DNA of 28,150 nucleotides from contig JBCCHT010000030.1 of assembly GCA_039028615.1 (NCBI GenBank), positions 1 through 28,150 on the forward strand. Reading direction: 5' to 3'. How positions within the stretch are numbered: the stretch's first letter is position 1; the number at the start of each line of letters is the position of its first letter. Positions 1 through 8,694 of this stretch are shown here, piece after piece. This DNA comes from Myxococcota bacterium (GTDB lineage Bacteria > Myxococcota_A > Polyangia > Nannocystales > Nannocystaceae). The position numbers and the translations under genes are program-made. The notes under the pieces were generated by a model. That model was not told where the DNA came from, made no database searches, and was given only the letters and a program-made list of their open reading frames with translations.

Positions 1-550
1 ACATACCGCAGCCGCTCAGGTCGAGCGCGGTGCAGTCGAGCGAGCAGCTCGGCGTGCCATTGTCGAAGCCTTCGCTCTCGCAGGTGACCCCGCCGAAGTC
101 CTCGCCGTCGCAGACGTCCTTGCCGTCGAGGATGCCATTTCCGCAGCTGATCGAAGAGCAGCCCGCCGTGTCGTAGCCGGAGCAATCGAGAGCACAGCCG
201 AGCTGGCCGCCGTCGAAGCCTTGGCTGACGCAGTCTTCACCCGCGACGTCGGTGCCGTCGCAAACCTCGGCGCCCTCGATCACGTCGTTGCCGCACTCTT
301 CGCCCGGCCCGTCGTCGGAGGAGGAATCCAGGCCGTCCTCGCCCGTGGTGTCTTCACCCGTGGTGGTCTCGGGCTCGTCCGTGGTGGCCGGCTCGTCCGT
401 GGTGGCCGAGGGCACCGTGCCGGTGTCGCCCGTCGTACCCGCCTCACCCGTGGTCGTTTCTTCCCCCGACGGATCGGTGACCGTAGTGTCGTCCCCACAA
501 CCGAGCACCAGGAGGCTCGCACCCATCAAGGAAATCAAAGTCTTTTGCAT
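1..550 (-). CDS. Cysteine-rich repeat lipoprotein (Myxococcus-type Cys-rich repeat). The 5' part is in the window and the 3' end runs off the window start.
   Basis: The start is an ATG at 548-550 on the minus strand. The N-terminus reads MQKTLISLMGASLLVLGCGDD, a signal peptide with lipobox LVLGC. An acidic Thr/Glu/Asp-rich linker follows. Two tandem ~47-aa repeats follow, ECGNDVIEGAEVCDGTDVAGEDCVSQGFDGGQLGCALDC and SCGNGILDGKDVCDGEDFGGVTCESEGFDNGTPSCSLDC. I translated the frame by hand and found no stop from 550 down to position 2. The gene is absent from the ORF track because the frame runs off the edge. Confidence 0.7.
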   Translation of the reverse strand, partial: MQKTLISLMGASLLVLGCGDDTTVTDPSGEETTTGEAGTTGDTGTVPSATTDEPATTDEPETTTGEDTTGEDGLDSSSDDGPGEECGNDVIEGAEVCDGTDVAGEDCVSQGFDGGQLGCALDCSGYDTAGCSSISCGNGILDGKDVCDGEDFGGVTCESEGFDNGTPSCSLDCTALDLSGCGM

Positions 551-599
551 GGCGGATCGACTCTACCCGGTGACAACCGCATCAAACCAACTCTTCACC

Positions 600-619
600 C
601 GCCTTCATTCGCCTTCATT
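600..619. promoter_or_regulatory. Perfect tandem direct repeat CGCCTTCATT x2 in a divergent intergenic region.
   Basis: It was read directly at 600-609 and 610-619. It lies between the divergently transcribed edge lipoprotein (start 550) and lipoprotein paralogue A (start 739). A nearby 5-5 inverted repeat CCAGT-N5-ACTGG sits at 633-647. Confidence 0.3.
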
Positions 620-738
620 TTCGTGATCGGCCGCCAGTTGGCCACTGGATGCGGTTTGCGGGACTCTGGGCCGACGGCGTGACTCGGTTCACGAAGCGGC
701 TCGATCGGCCTTCGCTTCCCTTGCTAGGCTGCCCGTCG

Positions 739-1296
739 ATGCGCTCGACCCTCCTCCTTCCGCTGCTGCTCGGCGCCACGATCGCCAGCGGGTGCGCCGA
801 TACGGACGGCGCGGTGGAACTCGCGTGGGTCTTCGTCGATCGCAGTGGTGACCCCATCTTCCCCGGTGGCGTGTTCTCGCTGGACGATGAGCGCTCCTCC
901 TGCAATCTCCCCGGATCCATCGGCGATGAGAACCTCACCTACGACGTGAGGGCGGAGCTGGAGATCTGCGATCCAAATTGCGCAGCCGGATGTGATGACG
1001 ACTCCTGCATCGTGCTACCTCGGCGCGCCTTCGCTTGTAATACCGCCTACGGAAACGAGCCGGCCGTGCCCGCGAGCGACGACCGCTACCGCTTCACCGT
1101 CCGCGCCGTCATCAGCGCCCCCAGCATGGACATCGAATGCCGTGACCCCGCGCCCACCTGCGTCGCCACCCCGGCCCCGCGCGAGCGCCAGGTCGACGCC
1201 GGCCTGGTCACCGACCTCCAGGTCTACCAAATCGCCCTCGATGTCGACCGGGACGGCGACAACCGACTCGACCTGGAGGCATGTGGCTGTGCGTAG
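739..1296 (+). CDS. Secreted lipoprotein, paralogue A of a three-gene tandem family.
   Basis: There is an in-frame ATG at 739, inside the 649..1296 ORF. It gives MRSTLLLPLLLGATIASGC with lipobox IASGC. The mature part begins ADTDGAVELAWVFVDRSGDP, shared with the next two genes. It is Cys-rich with 11 Cys. Confidence 0.6.
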   Translation: MRSTLLLPLLLGATIASGCADTDGAVELAWVFVDRSGDPIFPGGVFSLDDERSSCNLPGSIGDENLTYDVRAELEICDPNCAAGCDDDSCIVLPRRAFACNTAYGNEPAVPASDDRYRFTVRAVISAPSMDIECRDPAPTCVATPAPRERQVDAGLVTDLQVYQIALDVDRDGDNRLDLEACGCA

Positions 1297-2086
1297 ACGC
1301 CTTCTCACTTCCCTCGCGCTCCTGACCGCGGCGACCACGGTCGGCTGTGTCTACCCCGCGACCGAGCCCACCGGGGTCGAGCTCTCCTGGCGCTTCATGG
1401 AGAGCAACACCGTCGATGGCGAAGAGGCCACCGCGGTGCGCACCTGCGTCGGTGCCTTCGTGGAGCAAGTCGCCATCCAGATCGAAGACGCCGACGACCC
1501 CACCCGCGACGGGATCTTCCGCTTCGAATGCATGACCGGGTTCCAGACCGCGGTGGATGCTCAGGTCGAGGCCTCCGACGCCTTCGTGCGCCTCGACCCC
1601 GGCCCCTACATCCTGCGGATCAACGCGGTCGACGATGCCGACGAGGCCAACATCGAAGAGCTCGTCGCGGTGCGCGAGATCGACGTCGACGACCGCGGGG
1701 TCACCCTCATGACCACTGCGCTCCAGCGCGCCACCGTCGAGCTCGACCTCAGCCTCAACGGCACCGAGAGCTGCGACGCCCTGGCCCTGCAGCTGCGCTA
1801 TGCCTCCCCCCAGACCGATCTCGCCGACTACCCGGAGGTCACCGACGATGACCCGCCGCTGTACCGCAGCGCCCTGGTCAGCGACCGCGGCCTGGGCCTA
1901 GGAGGGGCGCAAACCGCCTGCGGCGCCGAAGTGGCGGGGGCCCACCTGTTCTCCGAGATCGACCGCGGAGAGTATCTCCTCACCGTAGACGTTGACGGAA
2001 GGGCCTGTAGCGTCACTCTGGACCTGCGGGGACCGGACGGCGTGGTCAGTGTCATCGACCTTGCCAACCTCCCGTGCCCTGGCTAA
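1283..2086 (+). CDS. Secreted lipoprotein, paralogue B. It contains a duplicated VEL-module.
   Basis: GTG at 1283 (or 1289) is in the frame of the 992..2086 ORF and gives (M)AVRRRLLTSLALLTAATTVGC with lipobox TVGC. The mature part has GVELSWRFMESN...GPYILRINAVDD and a second copy TVELDLSLNG...GEYLLTVDVDG. It overlaps the gene A stop by 14 nt, which suggests an operon. Confidence 0.6.
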   Translation: MAVRRRLLTSLALLTAATTVGCVYPATEPTGVELSWRFMESNTVDGEEATAVRTCVGAFVEQVAIQIEDADDPTRDGIFRFECMTGFQTAVDAQVEASDAFVRLDPGPYILRINAVDDADEANIEELVAVREIDVDDRGVTLMTTALQRATVELDLSLNGTESCDALALQLRYASPQTDLADYPEVTDDDPPLYRSALVSDRGLGLGGAQTACGAEVAGAHLFSEIDRGEYLLTVDVDGRACSVTLDLRGPDGVVSVIDLANLPCPG

Positions 2087-2105
2087 AACCCGCCAAACGG
2101 CGACT

Positions 2106-3833
2106 TTGGTGCACAAACGCAGCTACATCGCGGCCCTCATCCTCACGAGCGGCCTGACCGCGTGCCAGGAGCCCCCCAGCTACCGCCTCCGCTGGGCGCT
2201 CGCCGATCGCGGCACGCCCACCGTGGAGGCCTGCGCCGAGTCGGGGCTCTTCGAAGTCCGCGCCCGCGCCTACCTCGATGGCGAGCGCTTCGTCGGCGAG
2301 CTGACGCTCCCCTGCGCCTCCTCCGAGCTGACCGATCCCCAGGGATACGTCGACGGCTCGGCTCTCCCCGCGGGCGACTACCTGCTCCAGCTCCGCGGCA
2401 TCGATCGTGCGGGAGACCCCTGGCGCACCGAGGTCCCCGCCGACCCCGGTGAAGAGGATGCGCCCGACCTCGAGGGCTGTCTCGACGATGCCTCCGCCTG
2501 CCAGGCCACCGAGTTGGTCTGCGACTGCGTGTCGCTCCAGGTTCGCGAAGACGCCACCGTCGATCTACCCGAGCTGCTGCTCGACACCCCGCCCGAGTGC
2601 GACGACGGCATCGACAACGACCAAGACGGCGTCGTCGATGGCCAGGACCCGTCGTGCGAGATCGACGGCGGCATCAGGGGCGAGGGCCTCCCCGTCGGCC
2701 TCACCGAGCTGTCGCTGTCGCTGACCCTGCTGGGCGAGAACCCCAACGCCACCTGCAGCTCCGTGCCCTTGCGTCGGCTCCAGGTTCAGCTCGAGGGCGA
2801 GACCGAGTCGCCCGTCGTCCTCGACGAAGACTGCCAGATCGATCGGCCCTACCTGCTGTCGCTGCGGGTGCCCGCCGACACGTACACCTTCTCCGTCACC
2901 GGTCTCGACCGCGAGTGTGACGAAGAGCTGTGCCTGACCATCGACGACAACCACGCGCAGGGTCTCAACAGCGACCACTGCCTCGACGACTTCCCGCAGT
3001 GCTTCCCCGCCTACTGCGGCGAGCAGCTCGCCAGCTGTGAGACCGACGACCTGACGCGGCCCGAGTGCGCCGCTCAGTTCCCCGATCTGCCCGAGTGCTT
3101 CGCGCCCACCGATCAGGTGCTCACGAAGACCAAGACCTTCACCGCCCAGATCAACGCCACTGGCGGCTCCATCCTCGAGAGCATCGACTTTTCCGCCGAA
3201 GACTTCGTCACCCCCATCGAGGGTCGCGTCGCCTTCAACCCCACCTACGTCAGCGCCCTCGGCCTCGACCTCGCCGGGGCCCAGATCGCCCCGCGCGCCA
3301 GCTGCCAGTCCACCACCGCCCCAGGCACCCTGGACATCGGCGGCCTGCAGATCGAGATGCTCAACGCCCACGGCGGAGCGGTCGACACCCCCGTCATCCT
3401 CGACGGCACCCCCATGGACGGCCGCGAGCGCACCTGCGCCGCCACCTTCACCAGCGAGCCCACCACCTGGGGAGGCTACGCGCTGGCCATCGACGCCGTC
3501 TCGGCCGAGGGCGACATCTGCTTCAGCAACCGCGCCGAGCCCGAGCCCATGCGCCCCGACGACCCGCTCGGCGTGTTCCTGGCCCGCGCCTACGAGACCG
3601 TCGAAGACGACGACGGCAGCCTCGTGATGCGCGTGCCCGACTCGTGCCGCGAGTGCGAAGCCGACGACGACTGCGACCCCGACGAGCCGAACTGGGCCTG
3701 CCTCGAAGGCGTGTGCCAGCGCCCCTGCGAGCTCGACCGCGACTGCGAGAGCTCGGTCCTCGGCGACCTGGGCTTCACCTGCAACGAGATCGACGGCCGC
3801 ACGCTCAGCTACTGCATCCCGCAGGTCGACTGA
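2106..3833 (+). CDS. Large Cys-rich secreted lipoprotein, paralogue C, with a MopE-like Asp/Asn-rich putative metal-binding motif.
   Basis: The real start is probably TTG 2106 or GTG 2109, just after the gene B stop at 2086, not the ATG at 1992 that overlaps gene B. Signal peptide (L)VHKRSYIAALILTSGLTAC, lipobox LTAC. The mature part has YRLRWALADRG...GDYLLQLRGIDRAGD and a second module LTELSLSLTLLGENPNATC...RPYLLSLRVPAD. It contains CDDGIDNDQDGVVDGQDPSC and a C-terminal Cys-rich block CRECEADDDCDPDEPNWACLEGVCQRPCELDRDC. Confidence 0.65.
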   Translation: MVHKRSYIAALILTSGLTACQEPPSYRLRWALADRGTPTVEACAESGLFEVRARAYLDGERFVGELTLPCASSELTDPQGYVDGSALPAGDYLLQLRGIDRAGDPWRTEVPADPGEEDAPDLEGCLDDASACQATELVCDCVSLQVREDATVDLPELLLDTPPECDDGIDNDQDGVVDGQDPSCEIDGGIRGEGLPVGLTELSLSLTLLGENPNATCSSVPLRRLQVQLEGETESPVVLDEDCQIDRPYLLSLRVPADTYTFSVTGLDRECDEELCLTIDDNHAQGLNSDHCLDDFPQCFPAYCGEQLASCETDDLTRPECAAQFPDLPECFAPTDQVLTKTKTFTAQINATGGSILESIDFSAEDFVTPIEGRVAFNPTYVSALGLDLAGAQIAPRASCQSTTAPGTLDIGGLQIEMLNAHGGAVDTPVILDGTPMDGRERTCAATFTSEPTTWGGYALAIDAVSAEGDICFSNRAEPEPMRPDDPLGVFLARAYETVEDDDGSLVMRVPDSCRECEADDDCDPDEPNWACLEGVCQRPCELDRDCESSVLGDLGFTCNEIDGRTLSYCIPQVD

Positions 3834-3906
3834 GCCCGTCGCAGGCTTGTTCCTCGCTCCGGCCGGAGGCCCGCTCCGCGCGAGATGACGGTTTGCGCGT
3901 CAGCGA

Positions 3907-4218
3907 CTACTTCAGACGTTCGCGCCAGTAACCCGGGGCTCGACTGTGGTGCGCAAACGCGACGAGGGTGAGTACACCATCCAACTCCCCGACGATCATC
4001 GAGTACCTGAATCTCTTCAGCTTGAACGCCCGAAACTCGTAGCGCTCGGGCACGTCCCTCGACAATGGCGCCCCCCGAGGGAATCGCTGAATCTGCCGGA
4101 GTTTCGCTTCGTACTCGTCGAGCAGGACGAAACCATACCCCTCGCGCTCTCTCTCCAGGTACGCGACCGCTGCCTCGAGTTCCTGCGCCACCTCGTCGAG
4201 AACTCGAACGAGACTCAT
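3907..4218 (-). CDS. Type II toxin of the ParE/RelE family.
   Basis: 103 aa. The motifs RFPRGAP...FRYSMIVGELDGVLTLVAFAHHSR match the ParE/RelE fold signature (YRV...V.IL.V.H..R). There is a 4-nt ATGA overlap with the upstream antitoxin gene. The region has visibly lower GC than its flanks. Confidence 0.8.
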   Translation of the reverse strand: MSLVRVLDEVAQELEAAVAYLEREREGYGFVLLDEYEAKLRQIQRFPRGAPLSRDVPERYEFRAFKLKRFRYSMIVGELDGVLTLVAFAHHSRAPGYWRERLK

Positions 4219-4439
4219 CGAGCGAGCTTCGAGCGCAACGCTCGCAGGTGCTCTTCGGCATCGTGGAACACCGCGTCACCAGCCTCGATCTTCTGGAGGC
4301 GCCGAGCGATCTCTTCTCGCCATTGCGGGCCCAAAGAGTCCGTCTCCAGGCTGTTGCTCAGCGCTTCGACGATCTCTTCCCGCTCATCTGCAGGCAGAGC
4401 GAGCGCTGCTTGCAGTACCTCCTGAGCCGCGGACGTCAT
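4215..4439 (-). CDS. Antitoxin, putative addiction-module component (TIGR02574-like) partner of ParE-type toxins.
   Basis: 74 aa. MTSAAQEVLQAALALPADEREEIVEALSNSLETD...WREEIARRLQKIEAGDAVFHDAEEHLRALR matches the characteristic L-x-L-P-x-x-ER...W-x-x-E-I-x-RR pattern. It is translationally coupled to the toxin. Confidence 0.8.
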   Translation of the reverse strand: MTSAAQEVLQAALALPADEREEIVEALSNSLETDSLGPQWREEIARRLQKIEAGDAVFHDAEEHLRALRSKLAR

Positions 4440-4503: not shown

Positions 4504-6252
4504 TCAGTTGGGGATTGCGGTGACGCCGGAAGAGTCGTCGGCCATGCGGTGGACCTCCATCGTCTCGAGGTCGACGAGGAACGACGGGCGGGGGCCCTGG
4601 AACTCGGCGGCGGACTCGTCGTAGACGACGACCGAGTCGTCCGAGGAGAAGCGGGGGCCGAAGGAGACCTCGGCGCCCTCGGTGGGCGGGGCGCTGATGA
4701 GGGTCGGCGTGCCGGGCGTGTCGCCGGAGATGTCGACCAGGTACAGCTCTCGCAGGTCGCCATCGATGGTGTAGGCCATCATGGTGCCGTCGTGCGACAC
4801 GGCGATGTCGCCCTGGCTCCATCCTTCTTCACCGCTGATCTGCTGCGGCGTGCCCGGGCCCGCTTCGGTGAGCGGCGTCCGGTAGATCCTCGGGAACATC
4901 TCCCCCTCGGCGCCGACGTAGTACAGCCAGGTCGACGTGGCATCGAACTGCGACCAGATGATGTCGGCTCCCGCGGTGAGGCCCTGGTTGACCCGCATGG
5001 GCTCCCCCAGCTCACCGCCCGAGGTGTCGGCGACGTAAAGCTCGTGCGTCTCGGGTTGCTCGTGCGCCGCCTGGTAGACGATCCAGCGGGAGTCGGGCGA
5101 CCAGCCGTAGTCCACGATCAACGACTGCGCGGCCCCCGGGGTACTGACGAGCACGGGAAGCTCGGGCACGCCCGACGACAGGTCGACGTGCATGATGTCG
5201 CCCTCGAGGCCATCGCCGACCCAATACACCAACCCGGAGCCATCGGGCGCGACCTGGGGCCGACGGATCTCGAGGCCCGAGAGCGGATCGTCGACGCGAA
5301 TGGGCTCCCCCGGCATCGCCCCCGCGAGGTCGACCCACCAGATGGAGTCTTCGGTAGCCCCGGGCGTGCCGTCGTCGACCGTGTAGATCAGCCCGCCCTG
5401 CACGAATGCACGCGGGATGGCGGTCTCGATGGGATCGACCAGGTCGCTGACGAGCATTGGAGCGCCCGCACCGTCGAGCGACAGGGCGTACGCGTTGGTC
5501 GGGCCGTCGTCCGTGCTCGAGCGATAGCCGAGCCACGCGCCGCCGGGATCGATCACGATCTGAGTACCTATCTGTTCGCTCGGCCCCTCGACGACCAGTG
5601 CCTCGGCCTCGCCCACGACGCCATCGGCGTACGGAATGGAGGTGATGCTGGCCGGGCCGCCGTCGCTGTCGACCACGACCCCGGTAAAGGCTCCCAGCGA
5701 CGCCTGCCAGGTGGTCGTGCCCAACAACGAGGTCTCGGAGATCGGGTCGCCCTCGATCCGCTGCGGCTCGCCCGGGGGTCGCGTGGTCAGATCGACGAGG
5801 TAGCAATCGCGCCCCGGCTGATCGTCATCGAAGGCACAGTACAAGAGCCCGTCGACAGCATCGGTATAGGCGCCCGGCATGCTCCCTCCACCCTCCGGGA
5901 TGTTGGTCGTGACCAGCACCGGGTCGAGCACCTCGCCATCGGCGTACTCGTACATCGACAGCTGAATGAATTCGCCGCCGTCGATGGGCTCGCGCAGGAT
6001 GAAGCGAGCACCCTCGGGCACGGGCTCGGGCTCACCCGTGCTGGTGGAGCTGTCGTCGTCGGTCTCGGCGGTCGCGCTCGAAGTCGAGCCCGAGCTCCCC
6101 GCGGTCTCGTCGACACCATCGCCGGGGCCCGTCGATGATCCACCGATGTCGGTATCGCCGGTCGAAGCGTCTGCAGACGGAACGGGATCGTCGTCGGGGC
6201 AGCCAGAGAGAGAAACCAAGGCAAGCAAGGCGAGGGGAGTCGTGCCCTTCAT
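4504..6252 (-). CDS. Lipoprotein with a TolB-like (PD40/WD40-like) beta-propeller domain.
   Basis: MKGTTPLALLALVSLSGC, lipobox LSGC, then an acidic low-complexity linker. It has recurring PD40-like strands PDGSGLVYWV, SPDSRWIVYQA, SHDGTMMAYT and FSSDDSVVVYDE. Start ATG 6250-6252 and stop TGA at 4504-4506 were checked. Confidence 0.8.
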   Translation of the reverse strand: MKGTTPLALLALVSLSGCPDDDPVPSADASTGDTDIGGSSTGPGDGVDETAGSSGSTSSATAETDDDSSTSTGEPEPVPEGARFILREPIDGGEFIQLSMYEYADGEVLDPVLVTTNIPEGGGSMPGAYTDAVDGLLYCAFDDDQPGRDCYLVDLTTRPPGEPQRIEGDPISETSLLGTTTWQASLGAFTGVVVDSDGGPASITSIPYADGVVGEAEALVVEGPSEQIGTQIVIDPGGAWLGYRSSTDDGPTNAYALSLDGAGAPMLVSDLVDPIETAIPRAFVQGGLIYTVDDGTPGATEDSIWWVDLAGAMPGEPIRVDDPLSGLEIRRPQVAPDGSGLVYWVGDGLEGDIMHVDLSSGVPELPVLVSTPGAAQSLIVDYGWSPDSRWIVYQAAHEQPETHELYVADTSGGELGEPMRVNQGLTAGADIIWSQFDATSTWLYYVGAEGEMFPRIYRTPLTEAGPGTPQQISGEEGWSQGDIAVSHDGTMMAYTIDGDLRELYLVDISGDTPGTPTLISAPPTEGAEVSFGPRFSSDDSVVVYDESAAEFQGPRPSFLVDLETMEVHRMADDSSGVTAIPN

Positions 6253-6319: not shown

Positions 6320-6940
6320 TCAGCGCACATCCGCGGTCAACGTCTGCGCTTCGCCGTCCCGCTGATACTCGACCACGTAGCGCCGGGCCGCCCGAGCGTT
6401 CATGTACAGCAACATCGTGTCGCGACTCGAGCCGACCGGAATGCCGTTGACGTGGGTGACGACGTCGCCGACCTGGAAGCCGAGCAGCTCCGCCACGGAG
6501 CCCGATTCCATGCCGTCGATGCGCACCCCGAGCGCGGGGGTCTTCACGATGCGGAACCGAAGCTGGCGCGCCACTGCGCCGCCGTTGCTGCGAGCACGGC
6601 GGGCGAAGTCGGTGGTCACCGTGCAGCGCTGGCCGGGCTCTTCGCAGGCGATGGCGTCCTTGGCCCCCTCGAGCGACTCGGCCGACGTGCGGTGCGCCTG
6701 CTGCTCGGCACGATGGGCCTCCTCGACCGCCTCGGCCGCGACCTCGCCCAGCTTCTCGATCCCCACGCGAGCCTCGTCGACCCCCTTGGCCACCACGTCC
6801 TGGGTCACCTCGGCCGCCTGGCGGGCTTCGTCGGACTCGAGCGCGCTGCACCCCAGCGTCGTACTCAACAGCGAGATTCCCAGGCCCAGGCCGCGCGCGT
6901 TCACCATGGCCAGCATAAACATCGAGGGCCGCCGTGCCAT
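6320..6940 (-). CDS. PDZ-domain lipoprotein.
   Basis: The likely start is ATG 6940 giving MARRPSMFMLAMVNARGLGLGISLLSTTLGC with lipobox TLGC. Alternative ATGs lie at 6922, 6916 and 6907. The C-terminus LLGFQVGDVVTHVNGIPVGSSRDTMLLYMNARAARRYVVEYQRDGEAQTL is PDZ-like. Confidence 0.6.
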   Translation of the reverse strand: MARRPSMFMLAMVNARGLGLGISLLSTTLGCSALESDEARQAAEVTQDVVAKGVDEARVGIEKLGEVAAEAVEEAHRAEQQAHRTSAESLEGAKDAIACEEPGQRCTVTTDFARRARSNGGAVARQLRFRIVKTPALGVRIDGMESGSVAELLGFQVGDVVTHVNGIPVGSSRDTMLLYMNARAARRYVVEYQRDGEAQTLTADVR

Positions 6941-7003
6941 GCCATCGTCATTTGAACGACCGGTGGCCGGTCTCACCGTCCGATCTGAAACAGCGTTCAA
7001 CAA

Positions 7004-7035: not shown

Positions 7036-7086
7036 CGGTATTCGAAGACCGTGGAGCACATGTAAGGCCCTATACTCCGAGGTGTG

Positions 7087-8694
7087 ATGTGGAGACTCGT
7101 GGGGGGAACGATCGCGGCGGCGAGCCTGGTGCTCGCGACCGGGTGTGGGGACGAAGGCACGGCGGAGGCATGGGATCCGCAGACCGAGAGCGCGGGGATG
7201 GGCGAGTCGGATTCGCCCGCGTCGGACACGGGCACCGAGCCCAGCGAGCCCGGGCAGACCGATGCGCCCGCCGACGAGAGCGGCGAGCCCACGGACACCG
7301 ACGCTCCTCCCTCGCAGCCGTCGGTCGACGTCGGCCATGCCCGCGAGTTCCGGGGCGTGTGGATCGCCACCGTCAGCAACATCAACTACCCGAGCCAGAC
7401 CGGGCTGTCGGCGGACGCCCAGCGGGCGGAGCTCGAAGCCCTGGTCGACGTGGCGGCAGCACACAACCTCAACGCGATCGTGTTTCAGGTTCGCCCCGAG
7501 TGTGACGCGTTCTATCCCTCGGAGCTCGAGCCCTGGAGTCGCTACTTGATGGGCTCGCAGGGAGCCGACCCCGGCTTCGATCCGCTGGCTCACCTCATCG
7601 AGATCTCCCACCCGCGCGGCATCGAGGTCCACGCGTGGTTCAACCCCTACCGCGCCAAGGCCAGCCTGAGCTCGACCCTCGTGCCGCCGCACATCGGCCT
7701 GAGCCAGTCGCAGTACGCCCACGAGTACGGCAACTTCCTGTGGATGGATCCGGGCGCGGAGGTCGTGCAGGAGCACACCATCGACGTGATCCTCGACGTG
7801 GTCGATCGCTACGACATCGACGGTGTGCACTTCGACGACTACTTCTACCCGTACCCCAACGGCGAGCCCTTCCCCGACGCGGTGACCTACCAGGCCTACC
7901 TCGACGGCGGCGGCTCGATGCTGCTCGACGACTGGCGCCGCAGCAACGTCGACTCGATGGTCGAGGTGCTCTACGAATCGATCGTCGGCACCCGCGATCA
8001 CGTGCGCTTCGGGATCTCGCCGTTCGGCATCTACCGCCCCGGGATGCCTCCGGGGATCGTGGGGCTCGACCAGTACGCGGAGATCTTCGCCGACCCTCTG
8101 CTGTGGATGGACGAGGGCTGGGTCGACTATCTCGCGCCGCAGCTGTACTGGCCGTCGACGCAGACCCAGCAGGCCTACGAGCCCCTGCTCGAGTGGTGGT
8201 CGAGCATGACCTCGGAGGGCCGCTACATCTTCGCCGGCAACTTCCTGTCGCAGATAGGCTCGAGCGCAGCGTGGTCGGTCGAAGAAGTCCTCACCCAGGT
8301 CGAGCTGTCGCGCGTGTATGCCGACCTCGGCTCGATGGGCAACATCTACTTCCACATCGAGCCCTTCGTCAGCGACACCCTGGGGGTCGGCACCGCGCTG
8401 GCCGAGGAGTTCTACGATGCGCCCGTGCTCACGCCGCCCCTGGCCGCAGCCGCGGACACCGAAATCGTGGCGCCGTGGATCGACGAGGTGGATGGAACCA
8501 TTACTCCGACGCCACAGGGCGAGGAGGACCTGCGCGCGTGGGTCATCTACCGCGACGACGGCGACGGTTTCGAGCTGGATGAAATCATCCCCGCGCAGAC
8601 CGAGAGCTTCACGCTGCCCAGCGGAACCTGGGCCATCAGCGCGGCCGCGCGCAACGGCGTGGAGAGCCGCGGCGTGCTCGTCGAGATCCCCTGA
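7087..8694 (+). CDS. Glycoside hydrolase-like family 10 (GHL10/YngK-type, PF02638) lipoprotein.
   Basis: ATG 7087 follows GTG 7084. MWRLVGGTIAAASLVLATGC, lipobox LATGC, then an acidic linker. The core REFRGVWIATVSNINYPSQ...AHNLNAIVFQVRPECDAFY...GIEVHAWFNPYRA...IDGVHFDDYFYPYP is typical of GHL10 proteins. Confidence 0.8.
   Translation: MWRLVGGTIAAASLVLATGCGDEGTAEAWDPQTESAGMGESDSPASDTGTEPSEPGQTDAPADESGEPTDTDAPPSQPSVDVGHAREFRGVWIATVSNINYPSQTGLSADAQRAELEALVDVAAAHNLNAIVFQVRPECDAFYPSELEPWSRYLMGSQGADPGFDPLAHLIEISHPRGIEVHAWFNPYRAKASLSSTLVPPHIGLSQSQYAHEYGNFLWMDPGAEVVQEHTIDVILDVVDRYDIDGVHFDDYFYPYPNGEPFPDAVTYQAYLDGGGSMLLDDWRRSNVDSMVEVLYESIVGTRDHVRFGISPFGIYRPGMPPGIVGLDQYAEIFADPLLWMDEGWVDYLAPQLYWPSTQTQQAYEPLLEWWSSMTSEGRYIFAGNFLSQIGSSAAWSVEEVLTQVELSRVYADLGSMGNIYFHIEPFVSDTLGVGTALAEEFYDAPVLTPPLAAAADTEIVAPWIDEVDGTITPTPQGEEDLRAWVIYRDDGDGFELDEIIPAQTESFTLPSGTWAISAAARNGVESRGVLVEIP

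Follow-up and report, generated by a model that had tools for sequence, protein, structure and literature searches.

Organization of the locus

The 28,150 nucleotides (nt) analysed here (hereafter the window) are positions 1 to 28,150 of the forward strand of contig JBCCHT010000030.1, from the assembly GCA_039028615.1 of a Myxococcota bacterium of the family Nannocystaceae, and have a G+C content of ~69%. Near their start lie three co-oriented genes, here called A, B and C, which encode putative lipoproteins and are the subject of this study. Genes were located by listing open reading frames (ORFs) and translating them, which confirmed the coordinates of the three genes (Table 1). An earlier note on this DNA had described three adjacent genes with lipoboxes, common motifs, an Asp/Asn-rich motif and a C-terminal Cys cluster, and all of these are present where they had been placed.

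Two start codons were considered for B. A GGAGG Shine-Dalgarno sequence at 1275-1279 favours GTG 1289 over GTG 1283, and a start at GTG 1289 leaves an A/B overlap of 8 nt (GTG...TAG), as in relatives, compared with 14 nt for GTG 1283. The overlap that the earlier note had given as 14 nt is real, 8 nt being the likelier length. NCBI annotation (locus tags AAF799_32325 and AAF799_32330) also starts B at GTG 1289, and starts C at GTG 2109; translation of C may begin at either TTG 2106 or GTG 2109.

Searches of about 30 related loci (designated L with a number) with hidden Markov models revealed that the A-B-C order is kept in nearly all of them, down to 35% identity, and the A/B overlap is conserved among relatives. 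No terminator-like or sigma-70-like promoter site was found in a scan of positions 400-4300, the A/B and B/C junctions included, and alignment of the sequences upstream of A across loci gave no interpretable promoter common to the window. Judging from the conserved order and overlaps and from the lack of terminator-like sites between the genes in that scan, A, B and C very probably form one operon, as the earlier note had suggested.

Table 1. Coordinates of genes A, B and C, their domains and the flanking features in the window
Feature	Position	Strand	Remarks
Gene A, lipoprotein	739..1296	+	185 amino acids (aa); lipobox Cys19 at 793-795; best conserved of the three
A N-terminal module (A_N)	808..1128	+	aa 24-130; VELAWVF strand to DRYRFTVRAV; Cys-rich insertion CDPNCAAGCDDDSC
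Gene B, lipoprotein	1283..2086	+	267 aa from GTG 1283, 265 aa from GTG 1289; lipobox Cys22
B1 beta-sandwich	1373..1687	+	aa 31-135; two invariant Cys, C55 and C83
B2 beta-sandwich	1700..2059	+	aa 140-259; strands TVELDLSL and GEYLLTVDV; invariant C164, C213, C242 and C265
Gene C, lipoprotein	2106..3833	+	575 aa from TTG 2106, 574 aa from GTG 2109; lipobox LTAC, Cys20
C1 beta-sandwich and Cys-rich connector	2175..2582	+	aa 24-159; YRLRWAL, GDYLLQLRGID; C43/C70 equivalent to C55/C83 of B
Disulfide-bracketed acidic loop of C	2598..2657	+	aa 165-184; CDDGIDNDQDGVVDGQDPSC; predicted Ca2+ binding
C3 beta-sandwich	2700..2906	+	aa 199-267; LTELSLSLT, RPYLLSLRV; C217 and C243
Helical Cys-rich insertion of C	2907..3110	+	aa 268-335; 8 Cys; helices 273-332, low to medium model confidence
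C4 larger beta-sandwich	3123..3605	+	aa 340-500; GGYALAIDAVSAEG strand; model pLDDT ~90
C5 C-terminal Cys-rich knot	3621..3821	+	aa 506-572; 9 conserved Cys
Cys-rich lipoprotein gene (cluster 11), 3' part	2-562	-	CGNG..E.CD-type repeats
Likely type II toxin-antitoxin pair	3907-4439	-	directly downstream of C
Very acidic lipoprotein	4504-6252	-	582 aa; leader ..LVSLSGC; weak PD40 / DPPIV_N beta-propeller matches
PDZ-domain protein	6320-7003	-	lipoprotein-like leader; divergent from the GHL10 gene
GHL10 glycosyl-hydrolase-like gene	7084-8694	+	divergent from the PDZ gene

Lipoprotein signals and distribution

All three proteins begin with a short leader that is basic and hydrophobic and has Cys as its last residue: the signal peptide of A is MRSTLLLPLLLGATIASGC, and the leaders of B and C end in ..LLTSLALLTAATTVGC and ..IAALILTSGLTAC, respectively. 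The lipobox Cys is invariant in the full-length homologs of each family (44/44 for A, 45/45 for B and 25/25 for C), which together with the leader upholds the proposal that all three are lipoproteins, as far as their sequences can tell. A relaxed lipobox is present in 37, 43 and 21 of these homologs, and the strict E. coli-type lipobox [LVI][ASTVI][GAS]C in 4, 10 and 15, respectively, the LTAC of C itself being canonical. The mature N-terminus of B, CVYPATEPTGVELSWRF, is nearly invariant. In Myxococcus xanthus, Lys at +2 is the inner-membrane retention signal and Ala at +7 is tied to matrix export (PMC3222651). None of the checked members of the three families (44, 45 and 25 homologs) carries Lys at +2, which makes outer-membrane anchoring the default, and by analogy with M. 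xanthus the outer membrane is the most likely anchoring site of A, B and C.

The mature forms of A, B and C each have an isoelectric point of 4.05 and almost no Lys. Beyond the lipobox Cys, A contains 10 Cys, B 6 and C 30; these even numbers in all three proteins point to an oxidising compartment, and many disulfide bonds are predicted.

Homologs fall into 115 clusters for A (~60-70% identity), 75 for B (~55%) and 29 for C (~40-60%), all of them from Myxococcota or metagenomes and none with Pfam domains. When one genome of each GTDB species was scanned, gene A was detected in 25 species, all belonging to Nannocystaceae, Nannocystales or Polyangia and including Paraliomyxa miuraensis and metagenome-assembled genomes of Nannocystis. 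Searching 1.84 billion representatives with the A profile returned 67 hits, of which the long multi-stretch ones are repetitive artefacts. The families are thus lineage-specific, as had been supposed, being confined to Nannocystales and covered by no Pfam or NCBIfam model. They are annotated as hypothetical proteins only and are undescribed, and context searches of the literature on myxobacterial Tol-Pal, the teneurin C-rich domain and M. xanthus lipoprotein sorting found no mention of the A, B or C proteins.

Domain architecture

The structure model of B, with a mean predicted local distance difference test (pLDDT) score of 92.2 and a predicted template modelling (pTM) score of 0.83, consists of two beta-sandwiches, residues 31-135 and 140-259. 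In the model of C (pLDDT 79.7, pTM 0.66), a sandwich at ~26-100 is completed by strands at 139-159 and followed by the acidic loop (160-195, low confidence), a sandwich at 200-267, a larger sandwich at 343-500 and a small Cys-rich domain at 506-572. The Cys cluster of this last domain (514-570) is conserved among homologs, and the Cys left unpaired by the odd number presumably bonds with a Cys of C4. Apart from the helical insertion of C, which an alignment of 29 homologs places only in the C of the window, in P0012 and partly in P0007, the two models are all-beta sandwiches and contain no domain of the Pal or CpoB type. In B, C55 and C83 would form a disulfide.

The N-terminal module of A is predicted from its profile to be a beta-sandwich like B1. 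The Cys pattern of the A family and its C-terminal LDLEACGCA are invariant across the 115 homolog clusters. A metal site in the CxxxCxxxCxxxxC stretch of A was considered and found unlikely; distant homologs lose its Cys together, and this joint loss points to disulfides.

The models support the earlier description of a ~90-aa module, which appears to be a genuine structural unit in the form of a small beta-sandwich stapled by a disulfide. That the module could not be placed in a known domain holds insofar as no Pfam or NCBIfam model covers it, but the fold class suggested by the models, FN3 / transthyretin-like, is well known; the class carries no specific function. A Pfam scan of A, B and C returned no domain at E <=1, the transthyretin-like / CarboxypepD_reg and FN3 models included. 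Comparison of the A and B profiles with PDB sequences gave no matches, and only the acidic motif of C found one, in teneurin.

Relationship among A, B and C

The earlier note had viewed the three genes as a duplicating tandem array of paralogs with repeated VELxW and GxY[IL]L strands. The recurrence of these strands is indeed far above the shuffle expectation: shuffles predict 0.027 occurrences of the VELxW-type strand and 0.012 of GxY[IL]Lx[ILV], whereas 5 and 4, respectively, are observed, both patterns having been defined post hoc. Neither occurs in the 6,576 aa of the other ORFs of the window; when the pattern is relaxed, matches also appear in A (DRYRFTV) and in a sixth module of C (GGYALAI). 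BLASTP of A, B and C against one another detected no similarity (best E 0.05-0.2, on stretches of 12-50 residues), and no DNA repeats were found among the three genes, which rules out a recent duplication. Each of A, B and C is an orthologous family of its own, with order-wide orthologs and one copy per locus, and the notion of a duplicating array was therefore abandoned.

Whole-protein hhalign gave probabilities of 66% for A-B, 30% for B-C and 25% for A-C. Since signal peptides inflate such values, the comparison was redone on mature sub-modules, with 40 column shuffles per pair and 45 reversed-profile comparisons as controls. A_N aligned with B1 at a score of 30.0 (82 columns after realignment, column-shuffle maximum 19.8) and B1 with C1 at 29.6 (83 columns after realignment, column-shuffle maximum 16.5), and both pairs beat 40/40 column shuffles (z 7.0 and 8.5, respectively). 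A_N-C1 was not significant (z 2.4). Weak pairs, including B1-C3, spanned z 3.4-4.0, among them B1-B2 (22.3, z 4.0) and C1-C3 (19.8, z 4.0), and B2-C3 and A_N-B2 lay at noise level. One of the 45 reversed-profile controls scored 29.0, level with the best true pairs, so that homology of A, B and C is suggestive and not proven. In the profile alignments, C55/C100 of A, C55/C83 of B and C43/C70 of C share columns together with an xYxLxh strand, and the models of B1 and C1 have their secondary-structure elements in identical order.

The three proteins might alternatively be unrelated, with a shared beta-sandwich fold and convergent motifs (the first strand after the lipobox and the GxYxLxV hairpin). 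The negative BLASTP result, the low hhalign probabilities, the high-scoring reversed control and the sub-module pairs that failed to reach significance are all consistent with convergence, and GxYxLxV-like strands are common in carboxypeptidase-regulatory-like domains. Convergence accounts poorly for two alignments of 82-83 columns that exceed every shuffle, for two Cys and both motifs at equivalent positions in A, B and C, for the common element order of B1 and C1 in adjacent genes, and for the absence of the motif pair from the other ORFs of the window, and we consider it unlikely. From the alignments, an ancient common origin of the three lipobox-proximal N-terminal domains is likely, and a common origin of the internal sandwiches is possible. 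What is left of the proposed paralogy is a suggestive, at most ancient, relationship of the N-terminal domains; for B2 against C3 the profile signal does not rise above noise.

The acidic loop of C

C165, D167, G168, D170, N171, D172, D174, G175, D178, D181 and C184 of the acidic loop are invariant in the 29 C homologs. When the C-family profile was compared with PDB sequences, it matched the Cys-rich region of fly teneurin (8fia_A, E 0.0024, 19.8 bits) and the C-rich domain of human teneurin-4 (Ten4; 7plp_A, E 0.16). The Ten4 crystal structure contains three Ca2+ bound by E835, D840, D843, N844, D845, D847, D851, D854 and D856, with thrombospondin type-3-like coordination at two of the sites and a transthyretin (TTR) domain after the C-rich domain (PMC9058538). 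The teneurin motif C-x-D-x-x-D-N-D-x-D-G-h-V-D-x-x-D-P-x-C aligns residue for residue with the loop of C, and the invariant Asp/Asn of the C family occupy 7/9 of the side-chain Ca2+ ligand positions of Ten4; the D856 position is Ser in C, and E835 lies upstream of the aligned stretch. In teneurin, and as modelled also in C, a transthyretin-like sandwich follows the motif. The match is short, C has no YD-shell or other teneurin context, and its loop holds two bracketing Cys only, whereas the teneurin C-rich domain has six Cys in a 1-3, 2-5, 4-6 pattern and three Ca2+ sites.

The loop shows the thrombospondin type-3 / teneurin ligand pattern D-x-x-D-N-D-x-D-G-x-x-D-x-x-D with a bracketing disulfide. 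With its invariant ligand positions and the transthyretin-like sandwich after it, Ca2+ binding is the best prediction for the loop, and C would be a bacterial example of a teneurin-type C-rich Ca2+ loop ahead of a transthyretin-like domain.

The earlier note had likened this motif to the metal-binding repeat of MopE-like proteins, which would make C a copper-binding protein. Besides the resemblance itself, the acidic double-disulfide repeat of NCBIfam (NF033662) matches C 164-185 at 24.2 bits (E 2.1e-5); this is below the cutoff of 41, a score usually attained with several repeats, and the motif occurs in a single copy, so the loop is a motif related to NF033662 and not a member of that family. 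The Pfam model for Cu-binding MopE (PF11617) has no match in C even at E <=1. The same model was detected in neighbouring proteins of related loci, which indicates that it works in the Myxococcota lineage examined, and the invariant Asp/Asn of DxDxDGxxD coincide with residues that bind Ca2+ in the C-rich domain of teneurin. On the absent PF11617 match and the teneurin alignment, copper or MopE-type binding by C was rejected as extremely improbable, and the likeness to MopE gave way to that with the teneurin C-rich / thrombospondin type-3 Ca2+ site.

Linkage to tol genes

At 22 of the 25 species loci, a gene of the MotA/ExbB family (tolQ) stands head-to-head with A on the opposite strand, ~80-250 bp away. 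Beyond tolQ lie an ExbD-family gene, a gene in the TolA position (no Pfam domain) and a TolB_N+PD40 gene, then Ppx/GppA and PHP genes; the tol-like neighbours best match the NCBIfam TolQ, TolR and TolB models, at scores below the equivalog cutoffs. In the remaining three loci, one or two inserted genes intervene and tolQ lies within 4.3 kb, a distance not exceeded at any of the 25. In the sublineage of the window the linkage is looser: L002, L004 and L006 carry one or two genes between the operon and tolQ. In Proteobacteria, pal and cpoB usually come after tolB; neither was seen directly after tolB in L007-L030, the rest of these genomes not having been searched for pal.

Two further observations concern the region between A and tolQ. 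A conserved element (consensus ~CGGCGCCAGGCTAMCCG) lies near the tolQ start in the head-to-head loci L011, L013-L018 and others and may be a regulatory site shared by tolQ and A; the window lacks it upstream of A. The cluster 11 Cys-rich lipoprotein gene that precedes A in the window also does so in L002, L006 and L031, where it and a CarboxypepD_reg lipoprotein gene (cluster 16) are what stands between the A-B-C operon and tolQ.

A candidate envelope scaffold

The reading that we favour, and to which we give an even chance, is that A, B and C constitute an outer-membrane lipoprotein scaffold with a role in the cell envelope, encoded by an ancient Nannocystales operon. One ancestral sandwich domain would have triplicated before Nannocystales radiated, giving the N-terminal domains of A, B and C; B would later have gained one sandwich, and C two, plus the Ca2+-binding acidic loop and the C-terminal Cys knot. 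Translation of the three genes would probably be coupled, so that the proteins are made in fixed proportion. Tethered to the outer membrane, they may have no enzymatic activity and serve for scaffolding or docking, probably acting together and perhaps as a complex, with Ca2+ rigidifying C. Ancestrally, the operon would have been co-regulated with tolQ-tolR-tolA-like-tolB through the shared divergent intergenic region, and such co-regulation makes a role in outer-membrane or envelope organisation most likely, rather than catalysis or copper binding. Most of the uncertainty of this composite reading sits in its functional part.

Several points weigh against this reading. B is absent in L021 and L025, where A is directly followed by C, and C was undetected in L012 and L024, so the trio is not strictly interdependent. 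No tolQ was found within 6-10 kb of the operon in L005, L031 and L033, which belong to the sublineage of the window; the A of L031 is 90% identical to that of the window, and L033 is an 11.1-Mb genome. The window itself covers only 738 nt upstream of A. The structure models are of B and C only, the fold of A resting on profile alignment, and the structural fold matches of the models appear generic. The lipoprotein sorting rules are extrapolated from M. xanthus, a member of a different suborder, and the common ancestry of the three proteins has to contend with the BLASTP result and the reversed-profile score given above.

The main rival, in line with the adhesive role that the earlier note had thought possible, would make A, B and C surface-exposed or matrix adhesins, Ca2+-stiffened beta-sandwich stalks on the cell surface. 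Their best structural neighbours include Mfa2, putative adhesins of Bacteroides, BcpA, CnaB and FN3 arrays, the loop type of C occurs in the extracellular proteins teneurin and thrombospondin, and all three are extremely rich in Cys and acidic residues. The A of the window also carries Ala at +7, the matrix-sorting residue of M. xanthus, but only 9/44 members of the A family do so, and B and C have E/D and Y at this position. Moreover, the proteins are short, with one to four domains instead of long repeat arrays, the ancestral neighbours of the operon are Tol genes and not secretion or adhesion loci, and the folds predicted for them also occur in TssJ, the pilotins and similar outer-membrane lipoproteins that face the periplasm. 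We regard an adhesin function as possible, though not probable.

The scaffold might also be more closely tied to the Tol system, as a Nannocystales-specific outer-membrane Tol module that is the partner of TolB or the TolA-like protein on the outer-membrane side and supplements or replaces Pal/CpoB, whose genes were not seen after tolB in these operons. We hold this version to be rather improbable. If true, it would represent a previously unknown means by which myxobacteria connect the Tol motor with the outer membrane. A, B and C might also be docking or pilot lipoproteins for some other envelope-spanning machine (a secretin, a T6SS-like system or the gliding apparatus), with the Tol adjacency incidental; this seems very improbable.

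Beta-sandwich lipoprotein families with no assigned function are common in myxobacterial genomes. If the scaffold reading is right, A, B and C represent a component of the cell envelope that occurs throughout Nannocystales and has not been described before. These marine and soil myxobacteria are rich in natural products, and their envelope is essentially unstudied. The cleanly delimited trio and its conserved position head-to-head with tolQRAB provide a testable candidate for lineage-specific outer-membrane organisation.

Flanking genes

The likely toxin-antitoxin pair downstream of C consists of a 103-aa ParE-like ORF (PF05016, 18.2 bits, cutoff 23) and a 74-aa ORF that overlap by 4 nt; the stretch has a lower G+C (0.653), and the pair is missing at the corresponding position in related loci. 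The 582-aa lipoprotein next to it has no homolog among the ~30 related loci clustered; its gene and the toxin-antitoxin pair seem to have been inserted between C and the PDZ gene, which is conserved. The PDZ/GHL10 pair recurs downstream of A-B-C within the sublineage (L002, L003, L004 and L033), and the PDZ gene alone in L005.

Comparison with known systems

Among widespread domains of the same fold class, CarboxypepD_reg (PF13620; the TTR domain of carboxypeptidase D, 5aq0 and 1qmu) and FN3 have no Pfam match in A, B or C, and the A, B and C families are set apart from both by their conserved intradomain disulfide and VELxW first strand. Mfa/FimA-type pilins and putative adhesins of Bacteroidetes (5nfi Mfa2, 3gf8, 4qdg and 3pay) come from a different phylum and match with TM-scores of 0.13-0.26 and high root-mean-square deviations; such very low scores indicate a match to strings of sandwiches in general. 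Features of pilus assembly were not seen in A, B or C, no search aimed at them having been made.

The likeness to the accessory components of the Tol-Pal system, Pal and CpoB, is that A, B and C are lipoprotein genes linked to tolQRAB. Unlike Pal, which has an OmpA-like domain (PF00691), and CpoB, with its tetratricopeptide repeats, A, B and C are without Pfam domains of these kinds. In predicted fold and presumed location they resemble TssJ of the type VI secretion system (T6SS; 3zhn and 4a1r) and the secretin pilotins ExsB (2yjl) and AspS (5wec), which are small outer-membrane lipoproteins with a transthyretin-like beta-sandwich.

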